Below, in pieces: positions 44,221-64,000 of a stretch of 64,000 nt of DNA. The translations under genes and the position numbers were made by a program. Each line of letters opens with the position of its first letter. Position 1 is the stretch's first letter. Below the pieces are notes generated by a model, which ran no database searches, was not told the origin of the DNA, and saw only the letters and a list, made by a program, of their open reading frames with translations. The DNA comes from Brevundimonas sp. GTDB taxonomy: Bacteria; Pseudomonadota; Alphaproteobacteria; Caulobacterales; Caulobacteraceae. The stretch spans positions 313,210 to 377,209 of the forward strand of contig NZ_OZ257138.1 in the NCBI RefSeq assembly GCF_965279155.1, in the 5' to 3' direction.

Positions 44221-44333
44221 ATCGATGCCTCGCGTGGCTGCGGTCGCGCGCGGGCCAGCCGGCGTCTATCGATGATCGCCTAAACATGACACTCTGACCA
44301 CTCGAACAACACTGTTCGACCTGGAGAGACGCC

Positions 44334-44732: not shown

Positions 44733-44750
44733 GCAGCCACGCACAAGGCC

Positions 44751-44784
44751 AAAGAAAAGGCGCCGACGGTTTCCCGCCGGCGCC
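44751..44784 (-). terminator. Intrinsic terminator after glnA
   Basis: ggcgccgacgg-tttc-ccgccggcgcc stem; A-run on + gives a U-tail on -. Confidence 0.75.
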
Positions 44785-44807
44785 CTGATCTGCGGCCGAT
44801 CTGTCGA

Positions 44808-46214: not shown

Positions 46215-46297
46215 TCTCGGAAGTCCTGTTTCTTGGCGTTTGGGGAGGAAACCGGTCAACGACCCGAGGGGCCGAGGACCGGGGAGGGTGGTCGAAT

Positions 46298-46702
<405 letters not shown>

Positions 46703-46750
46703 TCAAAGCAAGCGATTTTCGCAGAAAAGCCACGGATAATCGGAACGCGG

Positions 46751-47575
46751 ATGATAGAAACCAACGACCCGGCGATCTGGCGCAATTTTCTGCCTTGGCC
46801 GGGCGCGGAAACGCACAAGCATACGCGGGGCCGTTTGGTCGTCGTCTCGGGAAAGGCCCATCAGACGGGCGCTGCGCGACTTGCGGCGCACGCGGGGCTG
46901 CGAATGGGCGCCGGCGTGGTGCGAATCCTGTGCCCGCCAGACGCCGTCGCCGTCATCGCGCCGGCCGTCCAGGCGATCATGCTGACGCCGTTCTCTTCAT
47001 CTGAAATCTTAGGTCGAGAGGTCGCCGGCAGCGACGCCGTCGTGATCGGACCGGCTGCGGGACTGGAAGACGCGACGATCGCCAACATCCAGGCCCTGGC
47101 TTTGAGCGGCGCAGTGCTGGTGATCGACGCCGACGGTCTGTCGGTATTCAAGGGCCGAACCGCCGAACTGTTCGCCGTTCTGGACCGCGACGACATCCTG
47201 ACGCCGCATGAGGGCGAGTTCGAACGGCTGTTTCCGGGTCTGCTGGACCAAGGCCGCGAAGTCGCCGCCATTGAAGCCGCGCGCCTGACCCAGGCAACCA
47301 TCGTCCTGAAAGGCGCCAGGACGATCATCGCGTCACCTGACGGACGCGTCCGTCGCAACGAGAATGGCTCGGCCTGGCTGGCTACGGCTGGAACCGGCGA
47401 TGTCCTGGCCGGAATGATCGGCGGACTGGCGGCCCAGCGGATGGACAGTTTCGATGCGGCGTGCGCGGCGGTCTGGATCCATTCCGACGCGGCGGAGCGT
47501 TTTGGACCGGGATTGACCTCTGACGACCTGAGCGATGTCTTGCCCAAGGTGCTGTCGTCTTTATGGAAAGGCTGA
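46751..47575 (+). CDS. nnrD: NAD(P)HX dehydratase (NnrD domain only)
   Basis: HKHTRG, GAARLAA, VIGPAAG, IDADGL, LTPHEGEF, LATAGTGDVLAG. Confidence 0.88.
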   Translation: MIETNDPAIWRNFLPWPGAETHKHTRGRLVVVSGKAHQTGAARLAAHAGLRMGAGVVRILCPPDAVAVIAPAVQAIMLTPFSSSEILGREVAGSDAVVIGPAAGLEDATIANIQALALSGAVLVIDADGLSVFKGRTAELFAVLDRDDILTPHEGEFERLFPGLLDQGREVAAIEAARLTQATIVLKGARTIIASPDGRVRRNENGSAWLATAGTGDVLAGMIGGLAAQRMDSFDAACAAVWIHSDAAERFGPGLTSDDLSDVLPKVLSSLWKG

Positions 47576-47603
47576 GCCGAAAGGATGCAGGGCCTTTGTC
47601 AGC

Positions 47604-47664
47604 GTTCCATAATCCCAAGACTCTAACTGGTTGAATTTCAAACGGTGCCATGTTCCATAATCCC
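47604..47664. repeat. 13-bp direct repeat gttccataatccc x2 at the left island junction
   Basis: Copies at 47604-47616 and 47652-47664; further aatccc at 47668 and inverted gggatt at 47707. Confidence 0.7.
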
Positions 47665-47872
47665 GAGAATCCCATAGTTCACCGCAAGCGATGGTGCTGC
47701 ATTATTGGGATTCACTGCATGGCCATAGTCGGTGCAACGCCACGCTAGGGGCTAGTGCCACCACGCAGGATCGCGGGCCGCTGAGCGATGGTGATAGCTA
47801 GCGGAGCGGATTGCGGAAGCGTTTGCCTGATCGTCAGCCGGCGCCGACGCGAGCTGGCCAGCAGCATGTTCT

Positions 47873-48088
47873 TTAGGGCGACAGATATCGCAACAGTCGC
47901 ATGCTGACCCAAAACAATAACACGCCCGCGATCACCCCAACTTTGATCTGGTGATCCATGAACCGAACGCCCAACACGGCGAAGAATGCGCCGGCTAGGC
48001 AAAGCACGGACAGGTTTCCCATCAACCTGGCGGTCATCTTGAGCCAGATGTCGTTTTGGTAAGGCGTCATTGGCGCGTTTCCATTCAA
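47873..48088 (-). CDS. Small two-TM hypothetical protein
   Basis: 71-aa ORF with two hydrophobic helices (LSVLCLAGAFFAVLGV; VGVIAGVLLFWV). Confidence 0.55.
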   Translation of the reverse strand: MNGNAPMTPYQNDIWLKMTARLMGNLSVLCLAGAFFAVLGVRFMDHQIKVGVIAGVLLFWVSMRLLRYLSP

Positions 48089-48199
48089 ATCGCAGCCTAC
48101 ACCGTATCGACGGGATGGGAAGATGCATGAAATACATCCACTCCCACCCGTAACTGGTGGACTGCAAGCCGCCCTCTCGGAACGACAAAATCGCCAGAA

Positions 48200-48769
48200 C
48201 TATTTGCCCATCTGATCCGAAGTCCGGGCCAAAGCGCGATACAAAGTGCTGCGAGAAATCCCGAAAGTGGTCGCTACGGCTCCCATCGTCTGATCGGGAT
48301 GCTGAAGTAAGAGACGGACCTGCTCAAGCTGGCGCGCCGATAGAGCCCGCTTACGCCCGCCAGTTCGTCCTCTCGCGCGAGCGGCTGCCAAGCCTGCCAT
48401 GGTCCGCTCGCGGATTAGGTCTCGCTCCATTTCGGCTAGAGCCGCCATCATATGGAAGAAGAACCGTCCTGCCGGTGTCGTAGTGTCGATGCCATCAGTC
48501 AGGCTTCGAAATTCAACGCCGCGGCTCTTTAGGGCACTGACGAAATCAACAAGCTGACCGACTGTGCGGCCTAGGCGGTCAAGCTTCCAAACAACGAAGA
48601 CATCTTTCTCTCGGGCAAAGCTTAAAGCCTCGCCCAATGCCTTGCGATCTACCCGCGCGCCGGACGCAGCTTCAGAGAAAATCCGCTCGCAGCCCGCCTG
48701 TTTGAGCGCGTCAATCTGGAGATCGAGGTTTTGGTCCGCAGTCGAAACCCGCGCGTATCCGATAAACAT
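48200..48769 (-). CDS. Small serine recombinase (resolvase/invertase)
   Basis: MFIGYARVSTADQ catalytic Ser, VWKLDRLGR, SLTDGIDTTTPAGR, ERTMAGL, C-terminal HTH GISRSTLYR. Confidence 0.95.
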   Translation of the reverse strand: MFIGYARVSTADQNLDLQIDALKQAGCERIFSEAASGARVDRKALGEALSFAREKDVFVVWKLDRLGRTVGQLVDFVSALKSRGVEFRSLTDGIDTTTPAGRFFFHMMAALAEMERDLIRERTMAGLAAARARGRTGGRKRALSARQLEQVRLLLQHPDQTMGAVATTFGISRSTLYRALARTSDQMGK

Positions 48770-48903
48770 GTCGCGAAACTCGTAAACCTAGGGCTTCATG
48801 ACACATAGATTATGCAACAGAGTTTAGCCACACCTTCGGCGCTGACGGCAGGGGGCGGAATTGGATTCGGACGGTCGCGGTCACAAACGTTCGTTTTTGG
48901 GAC
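48769..48903. promoter_or_regulatory. res-like recombinase binding sites upstream of the resolvase
   Basis: Imperfect palindromes tgtcgcgaa...ttcatgaca (48769-48803) and gtcacaaac-gttc-gtttttgggac (48880-48903). Confidence 0.55.
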
Positions 48904-49049
48904 GGGCCGATGAACAGAGGCCATGGGTGAGTAGCTGCCTCTGTGTTTTCTCGGACTTTTGGAAGGTCCGCTTTGAGGCTGCATGAAACATCTGCCTCCA
49001 GCGAGCCGGCGATGGCGCAACATCGCCACCCCGCCGTCTTTGCTCGATT

Positions 49050-49250
49050 CACGTCGGTAATCAGCTTTGGCTGCAGGTCGGAGCTTTCGGTAACGGTCCG
49101 ATAGATGCCGGCGAGCAGCGCACGCCCGGTCGATGGACCGGATGCCGGCGAGTACTATCCCGCCGACAGCTTCGCGCGCGTCGTGGCCATGGCAGAACCG
49201 CCTAAAGTTGCTATAAGCGAAATCCTGTTCCGACCGACGTCTCGTGAAAA
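49050..49250 (+). pseudogene. Degraded 3' fragment of an SDR oxidoreductase
   Basis: PADSFARVVA...ISEILFRPT resembles the YdfG-like SDR C-terminus; no intact N-terminal NAD-binding motif. Confidence 0.6.
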
Positions 49251-49282
49251 CTGGCGCCCGTCGACAGACCAAGGGCGACGTT

Positions 49283-50404
49283 ATGGCGAAGACAGCGTGG
49301 GACTGGGGCAATGTCCCCGATGACCCAGATGTTCGCGCCGCATCGCGCATGCTCGGTTGCGCCGGAGAGGGAGCGCCCGCGAAGAAGCGCCATCATTATG
49401 TAGCGACAACCTATCTCGATGGCTTCACCACGCCCGAAGGCAAGCTCTGGACCTACTTCCTCGACAATCCCCTCAATCCCCGACCCAGCCGACCCGAGGC
49501 GGTTGGCTATTCCAACTACTACTATTCGCAGCTTCGACCTGACGGCACGCGCGACGATAACTCGTTCGAAGACCTGTGGAGCGCGATCGAGACCGTCTGG
49601 CCCGAGACGATGGCGGCGATCCGGGGCGGTCGTGTCTCGCCGGCGACCTCGTTCAATGTACTCGGCATGGTTGGGATCACGGGCGTTCGTGTGCCCGCCG
49701 CACGACACCGGCATGAGCTTCTGCTTGCAGCGAAGCTGCGCGCCGAGGCGAAGGCGCTCGAGCGCGCGGGCGTGCTGCCTAAAAAACTGCAACGCTACGC
49801 GGGCCAGCTCGACACCGTTCCCGTCGGCATCAACCCGCAACAGTCGATCCCGACGATGATGACCGATCTGCGCCGGTTCGGCGATCTGTGCTTCCAGATT
49901 GGCTTCGAAGTGGTCCACAACGACACCGATCTGCCCTTCATCACGTCGGACAATCCGCTCGCAATCTACGATCCGCGATCGCCCCCCGGCCAGCGCCGCC
50001 CATATGAGTACGACGGCCAAGTCGAGCTGATATGTCCGCTCGATGCGAGCACGCTATTGCGGGGCCACAGCCGGATTCGGCCGGTGAATGAAATCTCACG
50101 CCACGTGCGCATCTCGGACCGGAGCGCGATTGCGAGATTGAATAATACTCTTGCCCAGTTCGCGTACGGGCTCGTCTTGGCGAGCGACCGCTCAAGCGAT
50201 GGCGTGATCGCGCTGCAGGCGAACCGGTGCCCTACCTTGTCGATAAAGGTCGTCGAGACGCCGAAAGGCGGCGACATCATCTGGCGACACGTTTTCGGCC
50301 CCCGTCCGAAACTTCCCGCCTTCATCGACACCCCTGAAAAGGCCGAACGGCTTGAGGCCGAAATGGCGGCCGCCGCCGCCCGGGCAGTGGAGGGCGCACG
50401 GTGA
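49283..50404 (+). CDS. DUF4238-like protein
   Basis: N-terminal KRHHYVATTYL, later FITSDNP; both typical of DUF4238. Confidence 0.75.
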   Translation: MAKTAWDWGNVPDDPDVRAASRMLGCAGEGAPAKKRHHYVATTYLDGFTTPEGKLWTYFLDNPLNPRPSRPEAVGYSNYYYSQLRPDGTRDDNSFEDLWSAIETVWPETMAAIRGGRVSPATSFNVLGMVGITGVRVPAARHRHELLLAAKLRAEAKALERAGVLPKKLQRYAGQLDTVPVGINPQQSIPTMMTDLRRFGDLCFQIGFEVVHNDTDLPFITSDNPLAIYDPRSPPGQRRPYEYDGQVELICPLDASTLLRGHSRIRPVNEISRHVRISDRSAIARLNNTLAQFAYGLVLASDRSSDGVIALQANRCPTLSIKVVETPKGGDIIWRHVFGPRPKLPAFIDTPEKAERLEAEMAAAAARAVEGAR

Positions 50405-51333
50405 CCGGCGAGCGGATTTTCAATGTCTTTCTGTATTTCGACGACGGTTTCGCGCGCGAGTACGGGGTCCGGCATCATCGCGTGCGAGGCGACGACGCCA
50501 CCAAGATGGCGGCGCTCGCTCAAGCAGTCGCGACGGATCACGGCATCGCGCAGCGCTTCGCCCTGCCGCGGACCTTTACGCCGGGAGAATGGGCCGCGCA
50601 GCAACGCCTCGGGGTTAATCTAGGCCTGTTCGAGGGAGGCATCGACCACTATCGCGCGGGTCCTGAACCCCTGTATTGCCTGACGAGCATCGTCGACGGC
50701 GTTCCCCGTGCGGAGATCAGGGGCGGTCTGGGGCCGCACCAAGGTGACAGCGTCGGTGAGGGCATGCCTGGGACGATGCCGGACTGGCTGGTGGTCTATA
50801 CCGAAGGCGACGCTTTTCGATTCGACAAGCTGATCAACGACGACTACTTCGCGGCTATCAAGCTGCTGTTCAACGCGCGTCATATCGCCTCGACGTCGAA
50901 GCTACTGATGTCCTGCATCGATACGCTCGCCTTTGTCGAGTTCGGCGACAAGCGCGGCAATTTCGTCGAATGGCTGAATACCTATGCCGATCTCGAACCG
51001 GTCGGGGTCACCGCCGACGAACTCTGGGAGTTTCGCAACTCGATCGTCCATATGACCAATCTGTCGTCGCGCGCGGTGCTTGCGGGCAAGGCGTCGTCGC
51101 TGGCACCCTATATCGGCTCCGACGCGCTCATCGGGACCGAGCCAGTCACTGATCTCAAGCCGTTCAACCTTTACACGCTCAATCTGGCGGTGATCGGCGG
51201 CGTCAGCCGCTGGGCGCAGAGCTACAATCGCGACCGGAGTAAGTTCGAAAAATTCGTCGAACGCTACGACACGATCGTTTCCGACAGCCGGGTTGCAATC
51301 GTTCAGACGCCGCCGCCCACTGCGGCGTCTTAG
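50401..51333 (+). CDS. Hypothetical protein with a C-terminal HEPN-like domain
   Basis: GTGA overlap with upstream stop; helical region ...LLMSCIDTLA... then ELWEFRNSIVH (R-x4-H, 51034-51051). Confidence 0.65.
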   Translation: MTGERIFNVFLYFDDGFAREYGVRHHRVRGDDATKMAALAQAVATDHGIAQRFALPRTFTPGEWAAQQRLGVNLGLFEGGIDHYRAGPEPLYCLTSIVDGVPRAEIRGGLGPHQGDSVGEGMPGTMPDWLVVYTEGDAFRFDKLINDDYFAAIKLLFNARHIASTSKLLMSCIDTLAFVEFGDKRGNFVEWLNTYADLEPVGVTADELWEFRNSIVHMTNLSSRAVLAGKASSLAPYIGSDALIGTEPVTDLKPFNLYTLNLAVIGGVSRWAQSYNRDRSKFEKFVERYDTIVSDSRVAIVQTPPPTAAS

Positions 51334-51679
51334 ACAAGCCCGACGCTGTAGGCATCCATCAGATCCCAAAGCCAGTCGACATTCAGGTTGGACTGCCGCA
51401 GGCCGATCGTAGGCTTGCCGCGTCTACTTGCATCGAGGAGCCCCCGGCGACGGAGTCAGACCTCGGCAGACTGCCAGAACGCAAAGTGCGCGGCCCGTCT
51501 CTGACTCGTTGCTGACCATCGGAAAATCAGCTTCAAGGGTCGAATACGCGAGCGGTGACACCCTAAAGCGAGCGCCCGAACGATCGCAATAGATCTTGAG
51601 GCTGCCGTCAAAGTGCTGACCTTCCGACGTTCGAGGTTTAGCGTTGAGGGCGGTAGCGTCGCGACTTGAGGGGGAGACA

Positions 51680-54600
51680 ATGACGATCAGGTTCTCCGAG
51701 AACGGCCCGGAAATCCCGAGCGCCTTGCTCGACGCGCTCATCGCCGGCGACGTGGTCTTCGTCTGTGGCGCCGGCATCAGCGCACCGCAGCTGCCGCATT
51801 TCCGTCTGCTCGTCGAGCAGGTCTATGCTGGCCTGAACGCCGAGATGGAGCCTTCCGAAGAAGCATCCTTCCAAGCCGGCCGGTACGAGGAAGCCCTCGG
51901 TTCATTGTCGCGGAGAATGGTCGGGAGCCGCGACGTCGTGGACACGGCTTCAGCGCTCCTGGCCGTGCCCGATCCTGTGGACCTGACCCGCCACGCGACA
52001 GTGCTGAGGTTGTCCCGTGACATCGCCAATCAGGTGATTGTGGTCACGACCAACTTCGACACTCTAATAGAACGGGCACTGGCCGACCATACCGGTGGAG
52101 ATGTTCGGGAGGAGAGCGCCGCCGGTCAGGGCCTGCCGCCCCCGGGCGGCGCGGACTTCCATGGCGTCATCCACCTCCACGGTCGGCTTCGGGACGAGGC
52201 GTTGGGGCTGGAGCCGACCCCGCTCGTTCTGACCAGTGCGGACTACGGCGACGCCTATATGCGTAGCGGCTGGGCGTCGCGGTTCCTGTTTGATCTGATC
52301 CGCTGCAAGACCATCGTCCTTTTGGGGTACAGCGCCTCCGACGCCCCTATCCGCTATTTCCTATCCGTACTGGCGGCGGATCGAGCACGCTTCCCTGCGC
52401 TCAACCCGGTCTACGCCTTCTATGCCGTGTTTGAGGACGTCGCCGAGGCGGATGCCCACTGGGGCACGTTGGCCGTTGAGCCCATCCCCTACCGTGCCTT
52501 CCGCGATCCGGAGACGGGGGCCGAGGATCACGCAGCCCTCTACGACGATCTGGCCCGGCTTGCAGATGTCGTCGAACGGCCGAAAGCGTCTCGGCGAGAA
52601 AGGGCGCGGGCGCTCTTGCAACGTGATCCAGGTAGCCTAACCCCGCTCGAAACAAACGAAGTGGACTGGCTCTTTAACGGTCGATCTGATCTTTGGGATC
52701 TCGTTATCCGAGAGGTGACCCAGGCTGGCTGGTTCGAGCTTTTCCGAAAGCGAAAGCTCTGGGATGACAAGACGGCGAGCTGGGTGGTCGCAGCCTGGGC
52801 GGCCCTGGAACCCCAATCTCGGGGCCGATATGAGACCGCCATCCGATGGAAGGGTCTGCTCGGCGAGCCTTTCACCGACGAAGTCGCGTGGCGCATTCGA
52901 CAGACGGCGGACCTTCCTGACCTTTGGCGCAAAGCCTGGCGGCTGCTCTGTGTCGATCAGCTTCAGGAGGACAATGTTTGGGACCTGAAAAGCCCCTACG
53001 AAATCCTGGAGGCGATGAAGCAGGGTGTCGTCCTGGATCGCGATCTGGAGCACGCCGTCGGTTGGCTGAGGCCTCGTCTCGACATCGAGCCACACACAGG
53101 CGCGATTTACGGTTCGCCGCCGCCCGAGCCGGCAGAACGACTTCATGACATCGCCTGGCCACGGCTCAAGCTGAGCGATCGGGGCGCGTTGCCGGACTTG
53201 CTCAACGCGATTCCGCAATGGGATTCCGAAGCGCGTTTGCTAGACCTCATGGCGTCGGCGCTCGCCAGTACGGTGCTGACCGCTGGTGACGCGGAGATGA
53301 TCCGCGACGAGTATGACGCCGTCGATGGCGGCCTGCCGTCCATCGAACCTCACAAGCAGAACGACCATCGCGACGGCGTCGTCCATCTGGCCCAGACCTC
53401 CGCCACGCTCCTTCCGAAGCTGGCGGCCACGGACAGGGATGCCGCGAGAGCGATCGTCGCACGTTGGCGGGCGTTGCCGGGGCGCCTGGGTCTCCGGCTG
53501 TGGCTGCAGGCCTGTCGAACACCCGCATTGTTCACGCCGTCCGAAGTCCTCATTGACCTTGAGAGGCTGTCAGAGATCGACTTCTGGACGCTGCGACGCG
53601 AGCTTGCTCTGGTTTTTAGGGAGGGGCTAGCCGGTGCACCGGAGGATGAGGTTCTGCGGCTCGAGGCCCGGATTCTGGATACAGCCGACGCCTATTTCCG
53701 CCGGTACGAACTCGACGAAGGCCAGATGGATTGGCGTCCTCACGCCCGAGACGCAGAGGTCTGGCTGCGTCTGATGATGTTGTCGGAGGCCGGTCTCCTC
53801 TCCCAACCCGGGAAGGACGAGCTTACGGCGATCAAGGTTCGCCGCGACTACCTGGATCGTGCCGTCGAGGATCGGGATTTCTTCGGGTCCTATATGTCCG
53901 AGGTGACCGTCGTCACCGGTGATCCGTCCCCGATCGTCGAGGCGGCGGACGAGGATCGCCTGGAGGTGGCCTTGCAGGTTCGGGCAAGCCGGGACCTCCA
54001 CACACAGCACGGCTGGAGTGCCTACGCGCGCCAGGATCCGGAAGGCGCCTTCAAGACGCTCATGGACGGCCCCCGAAACGAACCGAATGCACCGCTGTGG
54101 CAGGAGTTCATCGGCACGCTGTCGTGGCCTAGCGATCAGGAAGACACCACCAAGTCTCGTCTGACCGTATCGGTGTTCGAGGTTCTGGACGGCGCGGAAG
54201 ACGACTTTATCGATCTCGTCTCGGACAGGCTCGTCGATCTGCTCTGGGGTGCGGCGGATGCAGCCGATATCGACAGCGGTGCTTGGTGGAGCCGCCTCTG
54301 GGCCTCAGTGGTTCGGTCTGACGACGGCGCTGCGCCCAAGGTCGACGATCTCTATTCGCAGGCCATCAATCATCCGGCCGGTCGTCTGACGCAGATCGCA
54401 CTGAAGTCGATCGAACGACAGCGGCGAGACACTCCGGATGTGCGTGAGCCGTGGCTGGGAAGACTGCGCCAAGCCGGCGCGGAAGGCGGCCTAAGCGGGA
54501 TCATGGCTTGGGCGGTTATGGCTCATGACCTCGTTTTCGTCCTGTCGGTGGCGGAGGAAGACGCCGTTCGCGTCATGGCGCCGGCCATGAGCGCCGATGA

Positions 54601-55297
54601 CGATATCGGAGCTGGTCTGCGCAAGGTGGCGGTGGAGGAGGGGCGAGTCTCGCCTCTTCTGACCCGACGGTTCGGCCCGATCTTGATCAAGGCGGCGACG
54701 GAAAACACATCGTCCGGCTGGTCCCAAGTGCATGCCGCAGGCAAGCTCCTGATCCCCCTCGCTAGCGTGGCCAGCGGAGACAAGGCGGCGGATGCCTGGG
54801 GCGTGACGACGGCTGAGGTCGCTCACGCGTTGAGGGTCGGCACACCTTCGCTGCGCGATGGCGCCGCCGAATGGTTCCGCCGAGCACTCGAGGAGGAGGC
54901 TGATCCGGCGGCCACGTGGCGGGGCTGGATGGGGACGCTGTTCCGAACCGTCTGGCCGAGGGAAGCAAAGTACCGCGATGCGGCCCTGAACCGTCACCTC
55001 GCCGACTTCGCGATCGCTGCCAGTGATGCATTCCCCGAGGCGCTTGAGCTGCTGCGACCCTACTTCATGCCGCGAGGCGCAGGTCGAGGGCACACCAACT
55101 CCTTGAGCAAATCCGACCTGCCGGATCGCTTCCCAAACGCCTGTTTGGACCTTGTCTGGATACTTTTTGGTCTCGGCGAAGTGGTCGATAATTATGAGCT
55201 CCCCAAGCTACTCGACCGTCTGATCACTGCGGCCCCGCGCTTGGAGGCTGATCGACGCCTTCAATGGCTTGAACATCGCGTCTTCCGGTTCGACTAA
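51680..55297 (+). CDS. Large SIR2 (sirtuin/NADase) protein, DSR1-like
   Basis: [36 protein letters not shown]; about 900-aa helical C-terminal region. Confidence 0.85.
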
Positions 55298-55320
55298 CTC
55301 CGAGATGTCCGATTGGATCT

Positions 55321-55690
55321 TCGAAGCGGTGAAGCCGGCGCATTCGATCGCAACCCGCATGGCCTGTTCCTGGAGGAGGGGCACGCCGAGGGTCTTGCCC
55401 AGCACCTTCTCCAGCTCGGGATTGGGATAGACGACGTCCTCCTTGCCCTCTCTGCGACGCAGATAGGGATGGACCATGTCGCCCTGGATCGGGCCGGGGC
55501 GGACGATGGCGACCTCGATGACCAGATTGTAGAAGGTGCGCGGCTTGATGCGCGGGAGCATGGCCATCTGGGCCTGGCTCTCGATCTGGAAGACACCGAG
55601 CATGTCGGCCTTCCGGATCATCGCATAGGTCTTGGGGGCCTCGGCCGGAATGGTGGCGAGGTCGAGCGCGATCCCCTTGTGCTCGGCCAG
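55321..55690 (-). pseudogene. dnaE2: Internal fragment of error-prone polymerase DnaE2/ImuC
   Basis: [52 protein letters not shown]; both ends missing. Confidence 0.85.
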
Positions 55691-55699
55691 CCGTCTCAG

Positions 55700-55895
55700 C
55701 GCGGCGATGCGCTTCTACACCATGACCCCGTACGTTGTGACCATATTCACCGGTCTGGCCGTCGCCATCGGCGCCACCCTGTTCCGGTGGCCCATTTGGC
55801 CGACATCTCGAACTCGGGCACGCTGTTCGCCATTTTCATGATGTCGATCGCGGTAATGGCGCTGCGCAAGGCCGACCCGAGCCGGCATGCCGACG
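55700..55895 (+). pseudogene. Frameshifted fragment of an APC amino-acid permease
   Basis: TPYVVTIFTG then frame change to LADISNSGTLFAIFMMSIAVMALRKADP. Confidence 0.7.
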
Positions 55896-55999
55896 CCCGA
55901 GGCCTGACACGCAGAGCGCAACTTGTTTTCCCTCGTGCAATGGTTGCGCGTTAACGAGGACTGCGCTCAAGGTCGGCCGTCAACTTTGCGAGGCCCGGA

Positions 56000-58459
56000 A
56001 TGGATACGGCTCTTATCGTGATGGGCGTCGCTGTCCCCGGCGGGGCGCCTGTCTTCTGCTACGCCCAACTCAGATCGGTGATCGCCGCAGGCGATTACGG
56101 ACCCCTCACCCTGCCCAGATCCGCAGCCCCGGCGAACCATCGCCGCGTCGCGGTGATGAAGGCGTTCGAACTTGTCTCATGGCGACGGCGCCTGAGCGAC
56201 GATGAGTTGGCCGCTTTCCGTTCCGGGCTGTCGGCGGGAACGGTGTCCTTGCCCGATGACTGTCCGATCGAGCCCGGCAAGACAATTAACGGCGAGACCT
56301 TCCCGGATACCTATATTCTCGAGACAAGCGACTACGTACCTGTGGCTGGTGCCGGGGTGCTGACTAGCCGCGGGCTGTGTTCGGCCGACGCCGTGCCCGA
56401 TATCGTAAACCTTCTCATCGCTGCGTTTGGCCGCGCTGAGGTCGGCGACGGGGTGCAGGCGCTGCTCACCGCGATCGACGATGAAATCGGGTCGCCGAAC
56501 CTCGTGGCGGAAACCCGTCGCCTGGGCGTCGTGGAAGACCTTCGACGGTCATCGTCGGCGACAGCCGCCGATCTTCTGCGTGTCGCGGTGGCCAAGGTCG
56601 ATGCCCGATCCGACGATGCCTGCCTTCAGCTCCGCATCATTCGAGAGCCGGTGGTCACCGCGCGCCGCGACCTCCGTGTCGTGGTTCGGATGAAGACCTC
56701 GACGTTCGAGGTCGTCCGCCGACTGATCCTGATCCCTGCGGACACGGATGAGCAGATCGTGGACTCGCCGAGTCACATCGTGGAGGCGGAGCTTCAGGTT
56801 TTCGATGCGCGGGATGGGGAGTTCCTTCAGTTGGTGGATACATGGTTTACCCAAGGGTTCCTGCTCTCCATGACCATGATGGGCGCCACAGACCTGCTCC
56901 CGACGCCGTTCAGCTCAGCGCCTCACAGCCCAGACCTGATCGCCCGGCCCCGATTTGAGGGCGGCGGTCCGAAGACTAGGCTGGGGTTCGGAAATCGCTC
57001 AGGCGGCTTCGATGTCCTGAAGGCGACCGCGGATATTGTCGATCAACTCGCCGGAAAGCGGGACGAGAAACTAGAATCCCGGTTCTTCGAGGCCGGGCAT
57101 CAATCCCAAGTCGAGGTGATCCGCTGGATCAAGTCCCAGCTCGAAAACACAGACGTGGAAGAAGCTTTTCTCCTCGATCCTTACCTCGGTCGCCCCGCTA
57201 TGGAGCGGGTCATCCTCCGCAACGGGAGTGAGAGTCTGAAGCTGACCCTGATGGTGTCCCCCGGGGCCGTCGATCCAGACGCCGAGAAAATGGACGCCAT
57301 CGTGGGGTCGGGACTTCACGTTCAGGGTCTGGTCGCCGCCGCCGAGGCGCTGAAGTCTCAGCTGTGCGGAGAGGTTGAAATCATCCATGTCGAGCGGGGG
57401 AGCGATCAGCGCCAGGCCTTCCACGACCGCTATCTGGGCCTCAAGCTGCAGGATGGAACGCCTCGTGTCTTCGTGCTGTCGAACAGTCTCAGCAAGGCGG
57501 CTGGAGCGTGGCCATTCGCCATCGCCGAGGTTGATCGCCGCGCCGCATGGCGGATCGCCGCCTATGTCAGCGCCCTGCGCCGCGGCCTCGAAAACGGTCA
57601 CCCTGTCACCTCCACCGTCATCTGGCGTTCTGGCCCACGCGAGAGCCAGTATGAGGTCCCCGAGGCGACGGCCTTCCAGTCGGCGCTGTGGGAGCTTCAC
57701 GGCGCGTTGTGCGAAGTCTGCACCGGTTCAGACGATGTCGATCCCGAACCCTACACGCCTCTTGTCGACCAGCTGCTCGCCTGCTTGCCTGAAGATCAGG
57801 ATGTCTCGGATCTCGGGACGGCGGTCTTCAAGGGGATGTACGGGCGTGATCGTTCGGCGAGCTTGCTGGCCGGCTGGATCGAAGACCGGCATGGCCATGA
57901 AGCGCTGGGACGGGCCGTCGCGGCAGCACAACTTGACGAGATTCTCCAGCAAGTGGCCCCCAAGGACGGACGTATCGGTCGGGTCCACCTTCAGATCGAC
58001 TCCCTGGTCCTCGCCGGCCTTCAACTGTCGCGCACCCCCAAGGGGACAGATGTCATACGGGATCGCCTGAACCCCGCCGCGGAACACTGCATGCTCTGGC
58101 TCGAGCTGGGAGGGGCGGGCGACCGTTCCCTTCGCGCCCTCTCCGCCGTATTCGCGATCGTCCTCATCGGGCTGGAGACCGCGCGCCAGGGTGTCGATCT
58201 CGTGCCCGCCCACCGGACGGGCCTTGCGACCGACTATGTCGCCCTGCTGGCCCGCGTGCTGCGGACCGACACTGCCCGAGAATGGCTCGCGCTGCGTGAC
58301 GACCTGGCCCCGGACACGGCGATCGTGAGACGATGCTTGGCCGCCGCCGAAGAACTGGCGTCCGATCTGCACGGCCCGGTCGCCGCGACCTGGAGACGGC
58401 TGTCGGCGGACCCCCTCTGTGTCAGGCCGCTTCCGATCGCTGACGAGCGGTCGCTGTGA
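56000..58459 (+). CDS. Large hypothetical protein with a PLD-fold (HDR-type) domain, VPA1262-like
   Basis: AFLLDPYL, then AFHDRYL...VFVLSNSLS (57419-57493). Confidence 0.65.
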   Translation: MDTALIVMGVAVPGGAPVFCYAQLRSVIAAGDYGPLTLPRSAAPANHRRVAVMKAFELVSWRRRLSDDELAAFRSGLSAGTVSLPDDCPIEPGKTINGETFPDTYILETSDYVPVAGAGVLTSRGLCSADAVPDIVNLLIAAFGRAEVGDGVQALLTAIDDEIGSPNLVAETRRLGVVEDLRRSSSATAADLLRVAVAKVDARSDDACLQLRIIREPVVTARRDLRVVVRMKTSTFEVVRRLILIPADTDEQIVDSPSHIVEAELQVFDARDGEFLQLVDTWFTQGFLLSMTMMGATDLLPTPFSSAPHSPDLIARPRFEGGGPKTRLGFGNRSGGFDVLKATADIVDQLAGKRDEKLESRFFEAGHQSQVEVIRWIKSQLENTDVEEAFLLDPYLGRPAMERVILRNGSESLKLTLMVSPGAVDPDAEKMDAIVGSGLHVQGLVAAAEALKSQLCGEVEIIHVERGSDQRQAFHDRYLGLKLQDGTPRVFVLSNSLSKAAGAWPFAIAEVDRRAAWRIAAYVSALRRGLENGHPVTSTVIWRSGPRESQYEVPEATAFQSALWELHGALCEVCTGSDDVDPEPYTPLVDQLLACLPEDQDVSDLGTAVFKGMYGRDRSASLLAGWIEDRHGHEALGRAVAAAQLDEILQQVAPKDGRIGRVHLQIDSLVLAGLQLSRTPKGTDVIRDRLNPAAEHCMLWLELGGAGDRSLRALSAVFAIVLIGLETARQGVDLVPAHRTGLATDYVALLARVLRTDTAREWLALRDDLAPDTAIVRRCLAAAEELASDLHGPVAATWRRLSADPLCVRPLPIADERSL

Positions 58460-58718
58460 ATCTGGCAGATCCGGTCGCGGAAGCCGCACGCCTGCTGTTG
58501 CAGAGCATGTCCACGAGCCGGGGAAAGCTCGGCCGGCGACAGTCGTTCCTGTTTGGCCGCCCGGGGTCTTCGCCCCACGACCGGCGAATGGCGAGGCGAT
58601 TTCAAAGATACGGCTTTGGGAACGGGCCGGACGGGACCAGCATCCAGCAACGCCGCCGGCCGACGGATGCCCTAGAATGATCGCGCGACCTGGGATCTGA
58701 TTCGGAGCTCTCGACGTC

Positions 58719-61700
58719 ATGTTCAACATCACCGGCGAGGATATCGCGCAACTGGGGGACGCCGACCTGCGGACCCTCGTCGCCCGGCTCGCCCAGGCAG
58801 AGGTGGCGCGGCGCGGCGGTCCCGTGTCAGCGGTCACCGCGGGCGGTCCGCAGGACGCCGGGGACGGCGGCATCGATGTGCGCGTTGAACTGCCGACGCC
58901 GACTGCACAACCCGATTTCGTCCCGCGGGCACAGACAGGGTTCCAGGTCAAGAAACCACCCATGACCCCATCTGCGATCGGTGGCGAAATGCGCCCGACC
59001 GGCACGCTGCGCGCTGCGATCGCCGAGCTTGCGGAGAAACGCGGAGCGTATCTGATCGTGAGCGGAGCGACGGGGGTCACCGACGTCGCGCTCGCAAGAC
59101 GCCGGACGGCGATGCGAGAGGCGGTCGCCGACCACCCAAAGGCGGGGGATCTGCATCTCGACTTCTATGATCGGGACCGGCTCGCGGCGTGGGCCGACCT
59201 CTATCCGGGCGTGGCCGCGTGGGTGCGCGGGCGGGTCGGGCGCCCGCTCGCGGGCTGGCGACCGATCGGGCGCTGGCGGGACCTCTCGACGGCCACCGAC
59301 ACCGGCTACCTGATCGACGAGGGGCTGACGCTGATCGACGAACGCGACGGGGCCAAGGTGCTGCCAATCGAGCAGGGCCTCGCGCTCCTGCGCGATCTGC
59401 TTCGGCGACCCGGCGCCTGCGTCAGACTGATCGGCTTGTCCGGGGTGGGCAAGACCCGTCTCGTGGAAGCTCTGTTCGAGGACGGGGTCGGCTCAGCGCC
59501 CCTTGATCCGGGTTCGGCCATCTATGCGGACTACGCCGACGCCACGACGCCGTCTGCCCAGGAGATGGCCCAACGCCTCGACGAGGCCCAAACCTCAGCC
59601 ATTCTGATTATCGACAACTGCAACCCGGCGACGCACAGCCGACTCGCCCAGGTGTGCGGGCGGCCGGGCAGTCGGATCAGCCTCCTGACGGTCGAGTACG
59701 ACATCCGGGATGACGAACCGGAAGCAACCCAAGTCGTACGGCTGGTCGCGTCTTCGGAACCCTTGGTCGAAACGTGGCTGGGGCGGGACTTCCCGCATGT
59801 GTCCCAACTGGATCGCGGCCGGATCGCCACCTTCAGCGGCGGCAATTTCCGCGTGGCGCGGGCGCTGGCGGGCGCGTTGCGAGTCGGGGAAAGCCTCGGT
59901 CGATTGCGAGACCGGGACCTGTTCGAACGGATCTTCCGGCAGCGGAACGACCCGGACCAGACCTTGCTGCGCGATGCCGAGACGCTCGCCCTGTTCTATT
60001 CGTTCGAGGGCGTGGACGATGCGGACGGCGAACTCGCGCGTATCGGTCGGCTCCAGGGACGCATGGTCGCCGATCTGTTCGGCACCTTGGCGGAGCTGAA
60101 AACCCGAGGCGTGCTTCAAACGCGCGGGAAGTGGCGCGCCATCCTGCCGCACGCCATCGCGAACCCGCTGGCGGCCGGGGCGCTGGGCCGGCTACCCCCC
60201 GCCGCATTCGACGCCTTCGCCGCAGCCCTGCCGGAGCGGATGTTCCGCTCGCTCACGCGGCGGCTGGGCCAGCTCCACGATGTGGACGTTGCTCGCGATC
60301 TGGTTCAGCGCTGGTTGGACCCCACAGGGCCGGCGGGCGACCTTCTCGCCGGGGGGCGGTTCGATCTGCTGATCAACCTCGCACCTGTCGCTCCGCGCGA
60401 CACGCTCGACAGGCTAACGGCTGCGGTTCAGGCGGGGGACGGACCGAGAGCCGGAGGATTGCACAGGGGCAGCTGGAACAGCCTGATCAAGGCGATCGCC
60501 TATGACGTCGATCTGTTCGCGCCGGCGGCTCGCCTTCTGGCGAGCCTGGTCGCCCGGGAGGCGCACGATGAGAACTACGACAGCGCCCGGGGCGCGTTCG
60601 AGGAACTGTTCCATCTCTACCTGTCCGGCTCCCAGGCCTCGCCCGCGGATCGCCGGGCCATCACGGTCGAGCTCCTGAGGAGCGACGACCCCGGCCTGCG
60701 GCGGGCGGGCGGCCTGGCCCTCGACGGCCTGCTGCAGGAGGGGCACTTCAGTTCCAGCCATAGCCTGGACTTCGGAGCCCGCCCTCGGGATTTCGGCTGG
60801 CACCCGACGACGACGCAGGACGTCAGCGACTGGTACGAAGCCGCGCTCGGCGTCGCACGAACCGAAACGCGCCGGGACGAACAGCGCGTGCGTTTTGCCG
60901 GAGCGCTGCGCGGTCTCTGGCGATACCCGGCCTGCCGCACGGCGTTCGAGGCGGCCGCGGCGGATTTTGAAGGCGACGGCGGCTGGCTTGAAGGGTGGTC
61001 TGCGCTGCGGATGGTATTGCGCTACGACGCCGAGGGGATGCCGACCGAGGTTCGACAACAGACAGACGCACTGATCGACAGGCTCAAGCCAGACGGACTG
61101 CTGGCGCGGGCGAGAGCATGGGTCGTGTCGCCACGGCCGGGTCTTTGGGAGGACGACGACGACGAAGAGCCCTCGGACTCCGGCACCTCATGGGAGCGCG
61201 CCAACGACCGTGCCGCCGAAATCGGCGCGGCCATGGCGTCCGACGAGGCCCTGCTCGCGGCCTTTATCCCCGAGGTGATGAGAGAGGGGGCGGCCGCGAT
61301 CCGCGATGCGCCCTTCGCCCGCGGTGTCGCAGGGGCCGTCTCGGATCTGCAGGCGACCTGGACAGTCATGACGACCGCCTATCGCGTCGGAGAGCCAGCT
61401 CGCCACTCGCCTGTGATCCTGGCCCATTTCCTCGCGGCCGCCCGGGCGCGGGATGACGCCTTCGTCGAGGCCTCGCTTGAGGCCGCCGCCGCCGACCCGG
61501 ATCTCGCGGGAGTCCTTGCCTACCTCCAGTTCACAGCCGGTTTGGATGCGCGCGGCATCGACCGACTGCTGCGCGCGATGGACGCGTCCGACGCGGTCGA
61601 ATCCTACCAGGTCCTTGGACGCGTTCACCCCGAGGACGTTGCGCCGGCCGATCTGGCGCGTTTGCTGGCGCGGCTCGCGCAGAAGCCTGGCGGCGTCACG

Positions 61701-62459
61701 ATCGGCCTGGACGCGCTATCGACCTATTTCTACCCGTCCGGTGGCAAGGCGGTCGAACCCCACCCCGCGCTCGTCGTCCTGGGGCGCGACCTCTTCTCCC
61801 GCATGGGACCCGAAGGTCTTTCGGACATGCGGAATTACAGCCTGCGCTATGTCGTACGGCCCTGTCTCTCCGGCGTGGACGGAGAAGCAGCCGCGCGGCG
61901 GACCTGTGAAATCGTCCGCAGCCTCAAAACGGGCCGGTCGGGTTGGAAACGGGGCGGAAACGGACTTGCCCAGGCGCTCTTCGAGGTCCAGCCGGAGATT
62001 GCACTCGACGTCTTCATGGCCGGTCCGGACGGGCCCGTTGAGACGCTCTTTCGGGAGCGCCCCGGCGGCCCTTCACCCCTCAACAAACTGGATGTGTCGC
62101 AGGTGGTCAGCTGGGCCGATAGGGACCCGGCGGCCCGCTACGCAGCCTTGGGGACCGCTTCCGCCATGTTCCTCAAAGACCAGGGCGATCGTACGCTGGG
62201 ATTGAACCCACTGTTCGTAACCTTGCTCGAGCACTCCCCGGATAAGCAGGCCTTCCTGGGGTCGTTCTACGACCGTCTCGCGCCGAGGAGCTGGTCGGGT
62301 TCGCTCGCCGAGATACTAGACCAGCGGCGGCGACTGCTCGACGCCTTGCCGGATCATCCGGATGTTCAGACCTGGCGCGAGGCCGCCGCGCCCCAGATTG
62401 CCCGTTGGATCGCCACCGAGCGGGAGAACGAGGCAGAGCGGGAGGAGTCTTTTGAATGA
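58719..62459 (+). CDS. Restriction-endonuclease-like + STAND-like P-loop ATPase + helical C-terminus (Avs-like architecture)
   Basis: DGGID...GFQVK (PD-(D/E)xK/Mrr-like); Walker A GLSGVGKT (59433-59456); Walker B ILIIDN (from 59601). Confidence 0.75.
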   Translation: MFNITGEDIAQLGDADLRTLVARLAQAEVARRGGPVSAVTAGGPQDAGDGGIDVRVELPTPTAQPDFVPRAQTGFQVKKPPMTPSAIGGEMRPTGTLRAAIAELAEKRGAYLIVSGATGVTDVALARRRTAMREAVADHPKAGDLHLDFYDRDRLAAWADLYPGVAAWVRGRVGRPLAGWRPIGRWRDLSTATDTGYLIDEGLTLIDERDGAKVLPIEQGLALLRDLLRRPGACVRLIGLSGVGKTRLVEALFEDGVGSAPLDPGSAIYADYADATTPSAQEMAQRLDEAQTSAILIIDNCNPATHSRLAQVCGRPGSRISLLTVEYDIRDDEPEATQVVRLVASSEPLVETWLGRDFPHVSQLDRGRIATFSGGNFRVARALAGALRVGESLGRLRDRDLFERIFRQRNDPDQTLLRDAETLALFYSFEGVDDADGELARIGRLQGRMVADLFGTLAELKTRGVLQTRGKWRAILPHAIANPLAAGALGRLPPAAFDAFAAALPERMFRSLTRRLGQLHDVDVARDLVQRWLDPTGPAGDLLAGGRFDLLINLAPVAPRDTLDRLTAAVQAGDGPRAGGLHRGSWNSLIKAIAYDVDLFAPAARLLASLVAREAHDENYDSARGAFEELFHLYLSGSQASPADRRAITVELLRSDDPGLRRAGGLALDGLLQEGHFSSSHSLDFGARPRDFGWHPTTTQDVSDWYEAALGVARTETRRDEQRVRFAGALRGLWRYPACRTAFEAAAADFEGDGGWLEGWSALRMVLRYDAEGMPTEVRQQTDALIDRLKPDGLLARARAWVVSPRPGLWEDDDDEEPSDSGTSWERANDRAAEIGAAMASDEALLAAFIPEVMREGAAAIRDAPFARGVAGAVSDLQATWTVMTTAYRVGEPARHSPVILAHFLAAARARDDAFVEASLEAAAADPDLAGVLAYLQFTAGLDARGIDRLLRAMDASDAVESYQVLGRVHPEDVAPADLARLLARLAQKPGGVTIGLDALSTYFYPSGGKAVEPHPALVVLGRDLFSRMGPEGLSDMRNYSLRYVVRPCLSGVDGEAAARRTCEIVRSLKTGRSGWKRGGNGLAQALFEVQPEIALDVFMAGPDGPVETLFRERPGGPSPLNKLDVSQVVSWADRDPAARYAALGTASAMFLKDQGDRTLGLNPLFVTLLEHSPDKQAFLGSFYDRLAPRSWSGSLAEILDQRRRLLDALPDHPDVQTWREAAAPQIARWIATERENEAEREESFE

Positions 62460-63691
62460 GCGAGGCCGAGCCGATCGATGACGCCGAGCCTGTCTCCCTT
62501 TTAGGCCCCGCGAAACGAGTTCTTCTGGGGGCCGGGTCGCCTTCGCGGCTCAAGCCCAGACGTCGGGCCGGACGACCGGTTTGTCTGCCGGAGCTGAAGC
62601 TGGACGGCATCATTGCGGAAGGCGGGCGCGAAGGTGAGATGGTCAAGGTGTGGAACCGCCTGTCCATGACGTCCGATGCCCCGCATTTTCATCTCATTCT
62701 CGAGAACCTGGACAAGACCCTCGCCGGCGCGTCGCAAAGCGCCGGGATCGAGACCCGAGGTCTCGCAGACGCAAATCTCGCGCTTCTCGTGATCCATGCC
62801 GACCATACCGCCGAGCTTTGGTCCGACAATCTGCCCGTGACCATGGATATCGTCCTGCTCCGCAGCGTAGAGAAGGGCGAAGCCGTCTTCCACCACGACA
62901 TTGGAGATATCCGGGCCGTCAATATTGGGGGGCCGCGTCTGTTGGCCGATGACAAGGTTCTCTGCGTCATGCGCGAAGGCTGGCGCTTCGGATTCTATAT
63001 GAATCTGACTCAGCAGTTCGATCCTGCGGAAATGGCGCGCACGCTCGCCGCCTTGATCCGGCGAATGCGCTACGCACGAATCTACAACGCTGTTCAGCAG
63101 CCGGCTGTGTTCGACCGGCTGGTGGAAGCGGGCTGGTTCCCCTTCGCCGAAATAGTGTCCCGGGAGTTCCCGAGCATCATGGGCGCGGTGGACGCGGGCT
63201 GGACCCTGGACGACGTCAACAAGGAGATCCTGAAGGCGTTCGACGAGCCCCGGCTCGACAGGATGCTGGAGCGTTGGACCCCCAGACCGCACTTTGCAGA
63301 CGCCGCGCCTCTCCTGCGGGCAGCGATCGCGGCCTACAAACGCGAAGACCCGGTTTCGGTCCTGAAGATCGTGCTCACGGAGATCGAGGGCGTTCTGCGG
63401 CGCGCCTACAAGGCGGAGACCGGACAGTCGGCCAGGCTCAAACGTCTGCTCGCCTTCGTCCATGAGACGGCTGTAAAAAAGACCGGCGCGCCTGACACGC
63501 TGCTGCTGCCGGAAAGGTTCACCGACTATCTGCGGGATTATGTATTCGCGGAGTTCGATCCTGACGCCGGCGGCGGGCTGGCCGGATCCCGACATGCCGT
63601 CGGTCACGGTGCGGCCGCGGCGGACAGCTACACCCAGGTGCGCGCCCTTCAGGCGCTGCTGACGCTCGATCAGCTCGCTTTGGCCACCTGA
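62456..63691 (+). CDS. Hypothetical protein with a C-terminal HEPN-like domain (start possibly 62639)
   Basis: ATGA overlap with upstream stop; EIEGVLR helix and SRHAVGHG (R-x4-H, 63590-63607). Confidence 0.65.
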   Translation: MSEAEPIDDAEPVSLLGPAKRVLLGAGSPSRLKPRRRAGRPVCLPELKLDGIIAEGGREGEMVKVWNRLSMTSDAPHFHLILENLDKTLAGASQSAGIETRGLADANLALLVIHADHTAELWSDNLPVTMDIVLLRSVEKGEAVFHHDIGDIRAVNIGGPRLLADDKVLCVMREGWRFGFYMNLTQQFDPAEMARTLAALIRRMRYARIYNAVQQPAVFDRLVEAGWFPFAEIVSREFPSIMGAVDAGWTLDDVNKEILKAFDEPRLDRMLERWTPRPHFADAAPLLRAAIAAYKREDPVSVLKIVLTEIEGVLRRAYKAETGQSARLKRLLAFVHETAVKKTGAPDTLLLPERFTDYLRDYVFAEFDPDAGGGLAGSRHAVGHGAAAADSYTQVRALQALLTLDQLALAT

Positions 63692-63797
63692 TCGTCTGTC
63701 GGGATCGTCTGAAACACCGTGCGCGCTGGGAAAAAGCAGCGGCAACCACTATTTCGATAACGCTGTTTGTCAGCCGGGTGCTACCCGGAAAGCAAAA

Positions 63798-63825
63798 GGG
63801 ATTAGCGGGCGAACTGCTAAATCCC
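63798..63825 (-). terminator. Hairpin immediately downstream of the tRNA-like fragment
   Basis: gggattagc...gctaaatccc imperfect stem with flanking aaaa on + (U-run on -). Confidence 0.5.
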
Positions 63826-63834
63826 ATTGAAAAA

Positions 63835-63877
63835 TGGTGGAGCTTAGCAGAGTCAAACCGCTGACCTTTTGCGTGCC
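63835..63877 (-). other. Degenerate 3' half of tRNA-Ala (GGC-like), probable att scar
   Basis: + strand tggtggagcttagcagagtcaaaccgctgaccttttgcgtgcc resembles the reverse complement of a tRNA-Ala 3' end (TGGTGGAGCTAAGCGGGATCGAACCGCTGACCTCTTGCATGCC) including CCA; 5' half absent. Confidence 0.7.
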
Positions 63878-64000
63878 CTCTCTGACCGCCCAATTCATGT
63901 TGGAGAGCTTCGGAACAAACCTCTAACCAAGTCCCTGACGAGAGCAACCTGATGCCGCCGGACCGTCAGACACCGTCCTGACGTAGTTACGGCACCGGGC

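Follow-up and report, generated by a model that had tools for sequence, protein, structure and literature searches.

A probable accretion-type defence island of separately mobile modules between nnrD and DUF1365 in a Brevundimonas genome

Does a dense run of large, co-oriented genes with predicted destructive domains represent one undescribed multi-gene defence system, or several systems that came to lie side by side? The question is raised by a locus of Brevundimonas sp. in which six long open reading frames (ORFs) follow the nnrD gene within a stretch of 64,000 nucleotides (nt), hereafter the window, corresponding to positions 313210-377209 of a single-contig genome of 3.31 Mb with 66.4% G+C. 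In databases, the nearest proteins carry the label Brevundimonas. In order, the six genes, all of them on the + strand, open and full-length in the window, encode a DUF4238 protein, a HEPN-motif protein of 310 amino acids (aa; p310), a Dsr1-like sirtuin, a Juno-like protein of 819 aa, an Avs8A homologue of 1246 aa and a HEPN-motif protein of 411 aa (p411). A first-pass annotation had described them as a horizontally acquired defence island of 16 kb with six co-oriented candidate effectors, among which only the sirtuin and the DUF4238 protein would resemble named systems. The comparisons reported here indicate that the block is very probably an accretion-type defence island at a variable nnrD-DUF1365 locus, i.e., a patchwork of at least four separately mobile modules, each acting alone, rather than a new multi-gene system. 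This reading is carried by the observed homologies, intact motifs and module borders, together with the independent distribution of the modules and the accessory status of the segment; the biochemical steps proposed below are modelled on characterised relatives and, for p310 and p411, on motif and neighbourhood.

The patchwork becomes visible when the island is aligned with other loci in which parts of it recur. Module 1 (47610-51506), comprising the resolvase, DUF4238 and p310 genes, recurs over 3.9 kb in L089-L091 (89.6% identity to L089 and L090, 90.7% to L091), where it occupies a different locus with an intact dnaE2 8 kb away; in the NCBI assembly L089, the copy of the protein bears the label 'uncultured Brevundimonas sp.'. 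Module 3 (55683-58593) consists of the Juno-like gene with its flanks and is found with 97.6% identity over 2.9 kb in L095 and L096, alone there between unrelated housekeeping-type genes. Likewise, module 4 (58592-64064, running past the window end at 64000), which holds the Avs8A gene, p411 and a tRNA-Ala fragment, recurs in L006 and L007 with 94.7% identity over 5.4 kb and with both flanks different, i.e., AbiE-type genes upstream and an ImmA/XRE pair downstream. The remaining, fourth module of the island is the Dsr1-like gene. The module borders abut at 55683-55689 and at 58592/58593, and G+C climbs stepwise from module to module (0.60, 0.63, 0.65, 0.67). The ORF list agrees with the first-pass annotation that the large genes past nnrD lie on the + strand, a 189-aa serine recombinase being on the minus strand. 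However, a shared orientation of four modules has a p of ~0.125 and is thus within chance, and the linkage among the genes that the annotation implied is not borne out, since the modules move independently and the two HEPN-motif genes belong to stand-alone families.

Debris between the genes, which the first-pass annotation had correctly recognised, bears on the origin of the patchwork. A 372-nt fragment of dnaE2, encoding an error-prone DNA polymerase, lies on the minus strand at 55318-55689; its identity is 94% to the DNA_pol3_alpha gene that L089 has in intact form, compared with 72% to the genome's own dnaE2. Part of the island was accordingly copied from a site of this kind; the piece, whose intact counterpart adjoins module 1 in L089, marks a former dnaE2-adjacent home of that part. 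It is followed on the + strand by 107 nt of a gene for an amino-acid permease (55748-55854; 81% identity to part of a 532-aa gene at positions 454200-455798 of the genome). A 213-aa ORF at 55313-55954, with a weak match to NCBIfam BcaP, was rejected as spurious, its DNA being made up of the dnaE2 fragment, on the opposite strand, and the permease fragment. Additionally, 40 nt at 62464-62503, encoding residues 4-16 of p411, recur inverted in L095 (12633-12672) with 97.5% identity; in L095 and L096 this copy lies 39 nt past the end of the Juno-like module and makes up the 3' end of an unrelated gene of 348 aa. The stretch may mark a point of recombination, or it may be a short element common to both loci.

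The island as a whole is accessory. The alignment to 24 congeneric species ends at ~47545, close to the end of nnrD (46661-47575; Carb_kinase 2e-53), and restarts at ~68608 at a DUF1365 gene. The variable segment therefore measures ~21 kb, extending through tniA, tniB and tniQ, rather than the 16 kb given earlier. None of the 24 species compared contains island DNA. In a wider census of 150 other species of the genus, with matches counted at E <= 1e-10, the Avs8A protein had a match in 6/150 species and the DUF4238 protein in 4/150, the full-length Dsr1-like protein and p310 in 1/150 each, and the Juno-like protein and p411 in 0/150. None of the genes is core in the genus, so that the presence/absence comparison called for by the first-pass annotation came out on the side of acquisition; an accessory block at a variable locus, with four genes matching validated defence families, bears out its general claim of a horizontally acquired defence island.

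The same locus in a congener, G020 (L002), carries ~18 kb of polysaccharide-synthesis and TonB-receptor genes and no defence genes: a TonB-dependent receptor, a PepSY protein, two GT2 proteins, WecG, Wzy and a Wzz-like protein. This DNA is absent from the genome that contains the window (G000), and the idea that the locus is a defence hotspot in this congener as well was rejected on account of this alternative cargo. G020 also has short remnants of the tniQ/ribbon-helix-helix (RHH) end at this locus (86% and 69% identity) without the island. With these remnants and other cargo in place in G020, the nnrD-DUF1365 interval is a long-standing variable site.

Which systems, then, do the modules carry? 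By sequence, described systems or close relatives of them account for four of the six genes, namely DUF4238, Dsr1, Juno and Avs8. The DUF4238 gene (49283-50404, + strand) encodes 373 aa from an ATG at 49283, or 386 aa from a GTG at 49244, and matches Pfam DUF4238 over profile positions 1-280 of 281 (6.8e-26, 91.8 bits). A lone DUF4238 protein from the P2 prophage hotspot protects E. coli against T7 (Rousset 2022, PMC9122126). The window protein resembles it in its full-length Pfam domain, its similar size and the company of defence genes, and differs in its translational coupling with the HEPN-motif gene that follows and in its linkage to a resolvase. It would act as a single-protein anti-phage factor.

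Another example is the Dsr1-like gene (51680-55297, + strand; 1205 aa from the ATG, in an ORF that opens at a TTG at 51644). Its product matches Pfam SIR2_2 (5.3e-17) and PADLOC Dsr1 (4.4e-78, best stretch residues 15-344) and has the SIR2 motifs TTNFD and HLHG with the catalytic Asn and His. Similar to Dsr1, it is a single gene of ~1200 aa with a Dsr1-type N-terminal SIR2 domain; it differs in its C-terminal ~850 residues, which the Dsr1 models scarcely match. By analogy, these ~850 residues would respond to a signal from the phage and set the N-terminal SIR2 NADase free to deplete NAD+ and so abort the infection.

The Juno-like gene (56000-58459, + strand) encodes a protein that the first-pass annotation had left without a system name beyond its PLD-like fold. 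It matches the NCBIfam VPA1262 N-terminal domain (VPA1262_N_dom, NF040700) with 143.3 bits against a cut-off of 80, residues 61-528 covering positions 6-477 of 478, and thus falls in the VPA1262/Juno family. Juno, a VPA1262-family protein described in August 2026, protects E. coli more than 100-fold against four phages (T4, lambda-vir and two from the BASEL collection; 10.64898/2026.08.01.741415). The subfamily of the window protein (812-866 aa in 11 full-length homologues, plus one frameshifted copy of 689 aa) has an F474-H-D-R477 ... S494-N-S-L497 signature that is invariant across 12 sequences and fits a PLD-like site, a fold that the motif suggests. The likeness to Juno extends to the VPA1262 N-terminal domain above its curated cut-off, the PLD-like H-x-R ... 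S-N-S core and the occurrence as a single gene in defence and mobile contexts, whereas the window protein is shorter (819 aa against a family profile of 1026 positions), falls short of the full-family model and differs in its C-terminal third. In line with single-gene function, the homologues in L095-L099 are single genes with no conserved partner, beside type I restriction-modification and mobile genes; the protein of L097 is identical to the copy of L095 and L096. A single-protein defence would follow, probably through a PLD-type phosphodiesterase or nuclease acting via the invariant H-x-R ... S-N-S residues.

The largest of the six, the Avs8A homologue (58719-62459, + strand), combines an Mrr-type nuclease, a STAND ATPase and a helical sensor. 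Residues 1-1246 match positions 3-1283 of 1283 of PADLOC PD-Lambda-4_A with 1063 bits, and the protein aligns end-to-end by BLASTP with the A protein of E. coli FEX669 (31% identity, E 2e-168), the reference locus used here, in which the A protein scores 2518 bits with PD-Lambda-4_A and a 303-aa B protein 653 bits. D53, Q76-x-K78, G242-x-G-K-T246 (Walker A) and D299 (Walker B) are invariant in six Avs8A homologues including the window protein. The FEX669 locus itself (L145, 46368-60001) has its PD-lambda-4 A and B genes beside an integrase and a pair of genes for a DEAD-box helicase and a DUF2290 protein, which we take to be the gene content of another P2/P4-hotspot defence system. PD-lambda-4 comes from E. 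coli ECOR07 (Vassallo 2022, as cited in 10.1101/2025.07.02.662641); its A protein was renamed Avs8A and alone gives full defence in E. coli, Avs8B being dispensable (10.1101/2025.07.02.662641). Avs8 senses the HK97-fold major capsid protein of phage (10.64898/2026.01.04.697583). The window protein shares with Avs8 the length and architecture of the A protein, the end-to-end alignment, the complete PADLOC model and intact catalytic and Walker motifs. It differs in that it is alphaproteobacterial and distant, with a capsid trigger assumed by analogy, and in that the place of a PD-Lambda-4_B homologue is taken by the unrelated p411 gene. Its C-terminal helical sensor would bind an HK97-fold major capsid protein, whereupon the STAND ATPase would oligomerise and the N-terminal Mrr-type nuclease would cut DNA.

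Thus, the earlier statement that only the sirtuin and the DUF4238 protein resemble named systems does not stand, because the REase-STAND protein corresponds to Avs8A and the PLD-like protein to the VPA1262/Juno family. The domain calls behind that statement fared unevenly: DUF4238, SIR2 and REase-STAND are confirmed by profile matches, whereas the two HEPN calls come down to an Rx4H motif and the PLD call to its own motif. The PADLOC search that had been suggested as a check matched the Avs8A and Dsr1-like proteins but neither the DUF4238 protein nor p310 or p411 at E <= 10. Sequence searches of the PDB with the Avs8A, Juno-like and Dsr1-like proteins, and with the p411 profile, returned no matches.

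The two HEPN-motif genes are of a different kind. p310 (50401-51333, + strand) starts within the DUF4238 stop (GTGA), with a Shine-Dalgarno GGAGGG 7 nt upstream, and p411 (62456-63691, + strand) starts with an ATG that overlaps the Avs8A stop (ATGA), with GGGAGGAG upstream. Both have numerous relatives, at least 218 homologues of p310 and at least 602 of p411. In p411, S378, R379, H380, V382, H384 and G385 of the motif S-R-H-x-V-x-H-G are invariant across 27 sequences; in the p310 motif W-E-F-R-N-S-x-x-H, the W, E and R (R212) are invariant and each of F, N213, S214 and H217 occurs in at least 90% of sequences. The model of p411 (predicted local distance difference test, pLDDT, 84.7) shows an alpha/beta domain and, behind it, a helical domain containing the motif, and a fold search with the whole multi-domain model gave 1ufb (TT1696), which we take to be a HEPN-domain protein, as its sole HEPN-like match, below significance (probability 0.41, E 1.4). 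The p310 model (pLDDT 74.9) gave no relevant match when searched as a whole multi-domain model. Profile-profile comparison finds the two families unrelated to each other (probability 0.3%).

Homologues of p411 neighbour Gabija, Lamassu, DRT, MADS, SAVED-TIR and AriA genes, and those of p310 neighbour Wadjet, retron RT-Toprim, pAgo and ThsB genes. Since both thus sit among known defence genes, they are the sole candidates in the island for something undescribed. They resemble ApeA-type stand-alone HEPN abortive-infection proteins in occurring singly within defence islands and in having Rx4H in a helical domain at the C-terminus, and UniRef labels one p411 homologue 'Apea-like HEPN domain-containing protein'; the likeness stops at the ApeA model, which matches neither protein, and at the lack of relation between the two families. 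They form two unrelated stand-alone families, each with an N-terminal alpha/beta and a C-terminal helical domain, and are most likely HEPN-type RNases. As self-contained abortive-infection proteins, they would have landed directly behind the DUF4238 and Avs8A genes and be co-translated there. A further step, which we put forward as possible and somewhat short of probable, would be that they represent two undescribed single-gene anti-phage families, in which an N-terminal domain would do the sensing and a C-terminal HEPN-type RNase the cutting; both would be common in Alphaproteobacteria, occur outside them as well and be missed by current libraries of defence profile models. Additionally, in Poribacteria and other metagenome-assembled genomes (L071-L087), distant p411 homologues (~30% identity) have a conserved gene of ~640 aa immediately upstream in 10 loci, which may be a two-gene form of the p411 family.

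The module picture has to be weighed against several readings in which neighbouring genes work together. In one of them, DUF4238 and p310 would form a two-gene system, as a sensor with a HEPN effector or as a toxin-antitoxin-like pair, mobilised by the adjacent resolvase. The GTGA overlap with its GGAGGG Shine-Dalgarno speaks for such a pair, as does the movement of the resolvase-DUF4238-p310 trio as one 3.9-kb unit in L089-L091 and L100; however, every co-occurrence is a copy of one module at 90% identity or more. DUF4238 lies next to p310 in 1/24 metagenomic homologue loci with enough upstream DNA, and that locus is itself a module 1 copy. No DUF4238 homologue is detectable within 5 kb on either side of a p310 homologue of 84% identity (L101); the congener G120 has an 84% p310 copy in a genome without a DUF4238 match, and G094 a 73% DUF4238 copy in a genome without p310, the carriers of the two genes in the genus (4/150 and 1/150) being disjoint. 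The copies of p310 in Sphingopyxis, Rhizobium and Hyphomicrobium are solitary, and no conserved neighbour of p310 homologues was found in the loci compared. With DUF4238 sufficient alone in E. coli (PMC9122126), the pair is unlikely. The Avs8A and p411 genes invite the same question, i.e., whether they form a two-gene Avs8 variant in which p411 replaces Avs8B as a second effector or modulator under the STAND sensor. They share the ATGA start/stop overlap with a strong Shine-Dalgarno, are inherited together in L006 and L007, and E. coli Avs8 likewise has a downstream gene in the same position. Nonetheless, their sole other occurrence is 95% identical and thus not independent evidence, and none of the 70 genomic loci of p411 homologues has Avs8A within 8 kb on either side; proteobacterial p411 copies have no common neighbour. 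None of the six Avs8A-bearing congeners has p411, and the Avs8A homologues on six plasmids are without such a partner, both in the fetched loci (tblastn, four tested) and in the annotation downstream (all six); two genes upstream of Avs8A on a Sphingobium plasmid, taken by size for DUF4238 and p310, showed no similarity by tblastn and were discarded. p411 has no similarity to the FEX669 B protein (E 3.4) and no PADLOC PD-Lambda-4_B match at E <= 10, and its first ~35 residues are lineage-specific, disordered and missing from homologues, as expected of a recent junction. Given also that Avs8A suffices in E. coli (10.1101/2025.07.02.662641), this variant seems improbable, to about the same degree as the DUF4238-p310 pair. 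Farther still from likelihood is a single undescribed three-gene system of the Juno-like, Avs8A and p411 genes (56000-63691): they are adjacent and co-oriented, but the border at 58592/58593 falls exactly between the Juno-like and Avs8A genes, each side is found alone, Juno-like homologues are single genes, and a 260-nt gap with a GC-rich inverted repeat (58556-58586, one mismatch) separates the two. Because modules 3 and 4 recur separately with a border between them, the Juno-like and Avs8A genes do not make one system, and we regard the three-gene reading as highly improbable.

Two readings concern the segment as a whole. According to one, all 21 kb would be cargo of a single Tn5053/Tn7-like transposon, with tniA, tniB and tniQ at its right end and the resolvase at its left. 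The tni genes indeed lie directly right of the island, together with a small RHH-like ORF, at window-equivalent positions 64342-68441 (L001 1052-5151), and encode a TniA of 546 aa with rve and Mu-transposase C-terminal domains, a TniB of 300 aa and a TniQ of 358 aa; moreover, the resolvase is at the left end and relatives lack the whole segment. Yet the surroundings of the tni genes and the two ends of the island, when searched for terminal inverted repeats, yielded nothing beyond 10-12-nt matches at chance level, with no target duplication found. tniA reads away, which puts the island outside the body that such a transposon would be expected to have; the resolvase is part of module 1, which occurs elsewhere without tni genes, and G020 has its tniQ/RHH-end remnant at this very locus without the island. 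For lack of inverted repeats and because tniA reads away from it, the island is not read as tni cargo, and this origin is very unlikely; a Tn5053/Tn402-type transposon, with the resolvase 15 kb off in module 1, was rejected on similar grounds. The other reading, that defence against phage is not the role of some or all of the genes, which might instead serve mobile DNA as addiction or toxin genes or be passengers in decay that have lost any present function, draws on the debris between the genes and on frameshifts in close copies of two of them. The Avs8A copies of L006 and L007 (6263-10004) are split into 320 and 935/964 aa, and the Juno-like copies of L095-L097 (10001-12459) into 689 and 122 aa. 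Both genes are intact in the window, the six frames are open and full-length with intact catalytic motifs, and four genes have experimentally validated relatives, so that a non-defence role is rather improbable, somewhat more so than either pair.

Several observations nevertheless count against the preferred reading of separately acting defence modules. The frameshifted copies indicate that modules decay, and the window copies could be inactive despite their open frames. The Juno-like protein reaches 116.9 bits with the full VPA1262_fam model (NF040699) against a cut-off of 325, over residues 342-548 only, and the Dsr1-like protein 318 bits with NCBIfam Dsr1 (NF041818) against a cut-off of 1400, with a best stretch limited to residues 16-309. 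Both thus lie below their full-family cut-offs and their sensor parts are divergent by sequence, which, in the Dsr1-like protein, follows from a Dsr1-type N-terminus combined with the low overall score. The lack of a PADLOC match for the DUF4238 protein belongs here too, the presence of such a model in PADLOC 2.0 being not established. p310 and p411 have no Pfam, NCBIfam or PADLOC match (PADLOC to E <= 10, ApeA included), 27 members of either family gave nothing with the Pfam HEPN families at E <= 1, and their HEPN identity remains a motif-level call. Finally, the 4-nt start/stop overlaps of DUF4238/p310 and Avs8A/p411, with their Shine-Dalgarno sequences, fit functional coupling as well.

Further features lie at the edges of the island. 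The resolvase that the first-pass annotation reported is indeed present, as a serine recombinase of the resolvase/invertase type (48200-48769, minus strand; Pfam Resolvase 3.6e-47, HTH_7 9.8e-10). About 500 nt downstream of this gene, at the left edge of module 1, direct repeats GTTCCATAATCCC(A/G)AGA lie at 47604-47620 and 47652-47668, and an incomplete inverted copy follows near 47700. Of the direct copies, the second at least is conserved in L089, and the repeats may be a binding site of a recombinase or transposase. A scan for promoters found 0 and one for terminators found them only at shuffle level, and a repeat scan of the island gave only short chance pairs. At the other side, the att-like tRNA scar proposed as a boundary exists as a degenerate 3' fragment of tRNA-Ala(GGC), running from the anticodon to CCA (63838-63880, minus strand, 43-44 nt) and 90.9% identical over 44 nt to the real tRNA at 1603845-1603920 of the genome, 1.2 Mb away. 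ARAGORN and Rfam (E <= 1, 44000-64000) detected no RNA gene, and no tRNA gene lies anywhere in the window. In L006 and L007, too, the fragment is part of module 4, no second tRNA-Ala-derived repeat was found at the left border (one piece only in 47000-69500), and no tyrosine integrase is among the ORFs scanned. For these reasons the fragment is not the island border that had been proposed, and a tRNA-integrated genomic island, which would call for an intact tRNA at its end, a direct repeat and an integrase, was rejected.

The main value of these results is one of correction: the block holds the recently named Avs8 and Juno systems, plus Dsr1 and DUF4238, and these genes are not to be counted as new biology. 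The locus offers a clean example of a defence island built from precisely abutting single-system modules of 3-5 kb, and the modules carry relics of earlier sites, namely the dnaE2 piece and the tRNA-Ala piece. Additionally, the locus shows that an Avs8A homologue need not be accompanied by a recognisable B gene, which apparently holds in other lineages too, and rule-based finders that demand both Avs8 genes could miss such B-less loci. Two well-populated HEPN-motif families resident in defence islands, those of p310 and p411, are thereby nominated as candidates.

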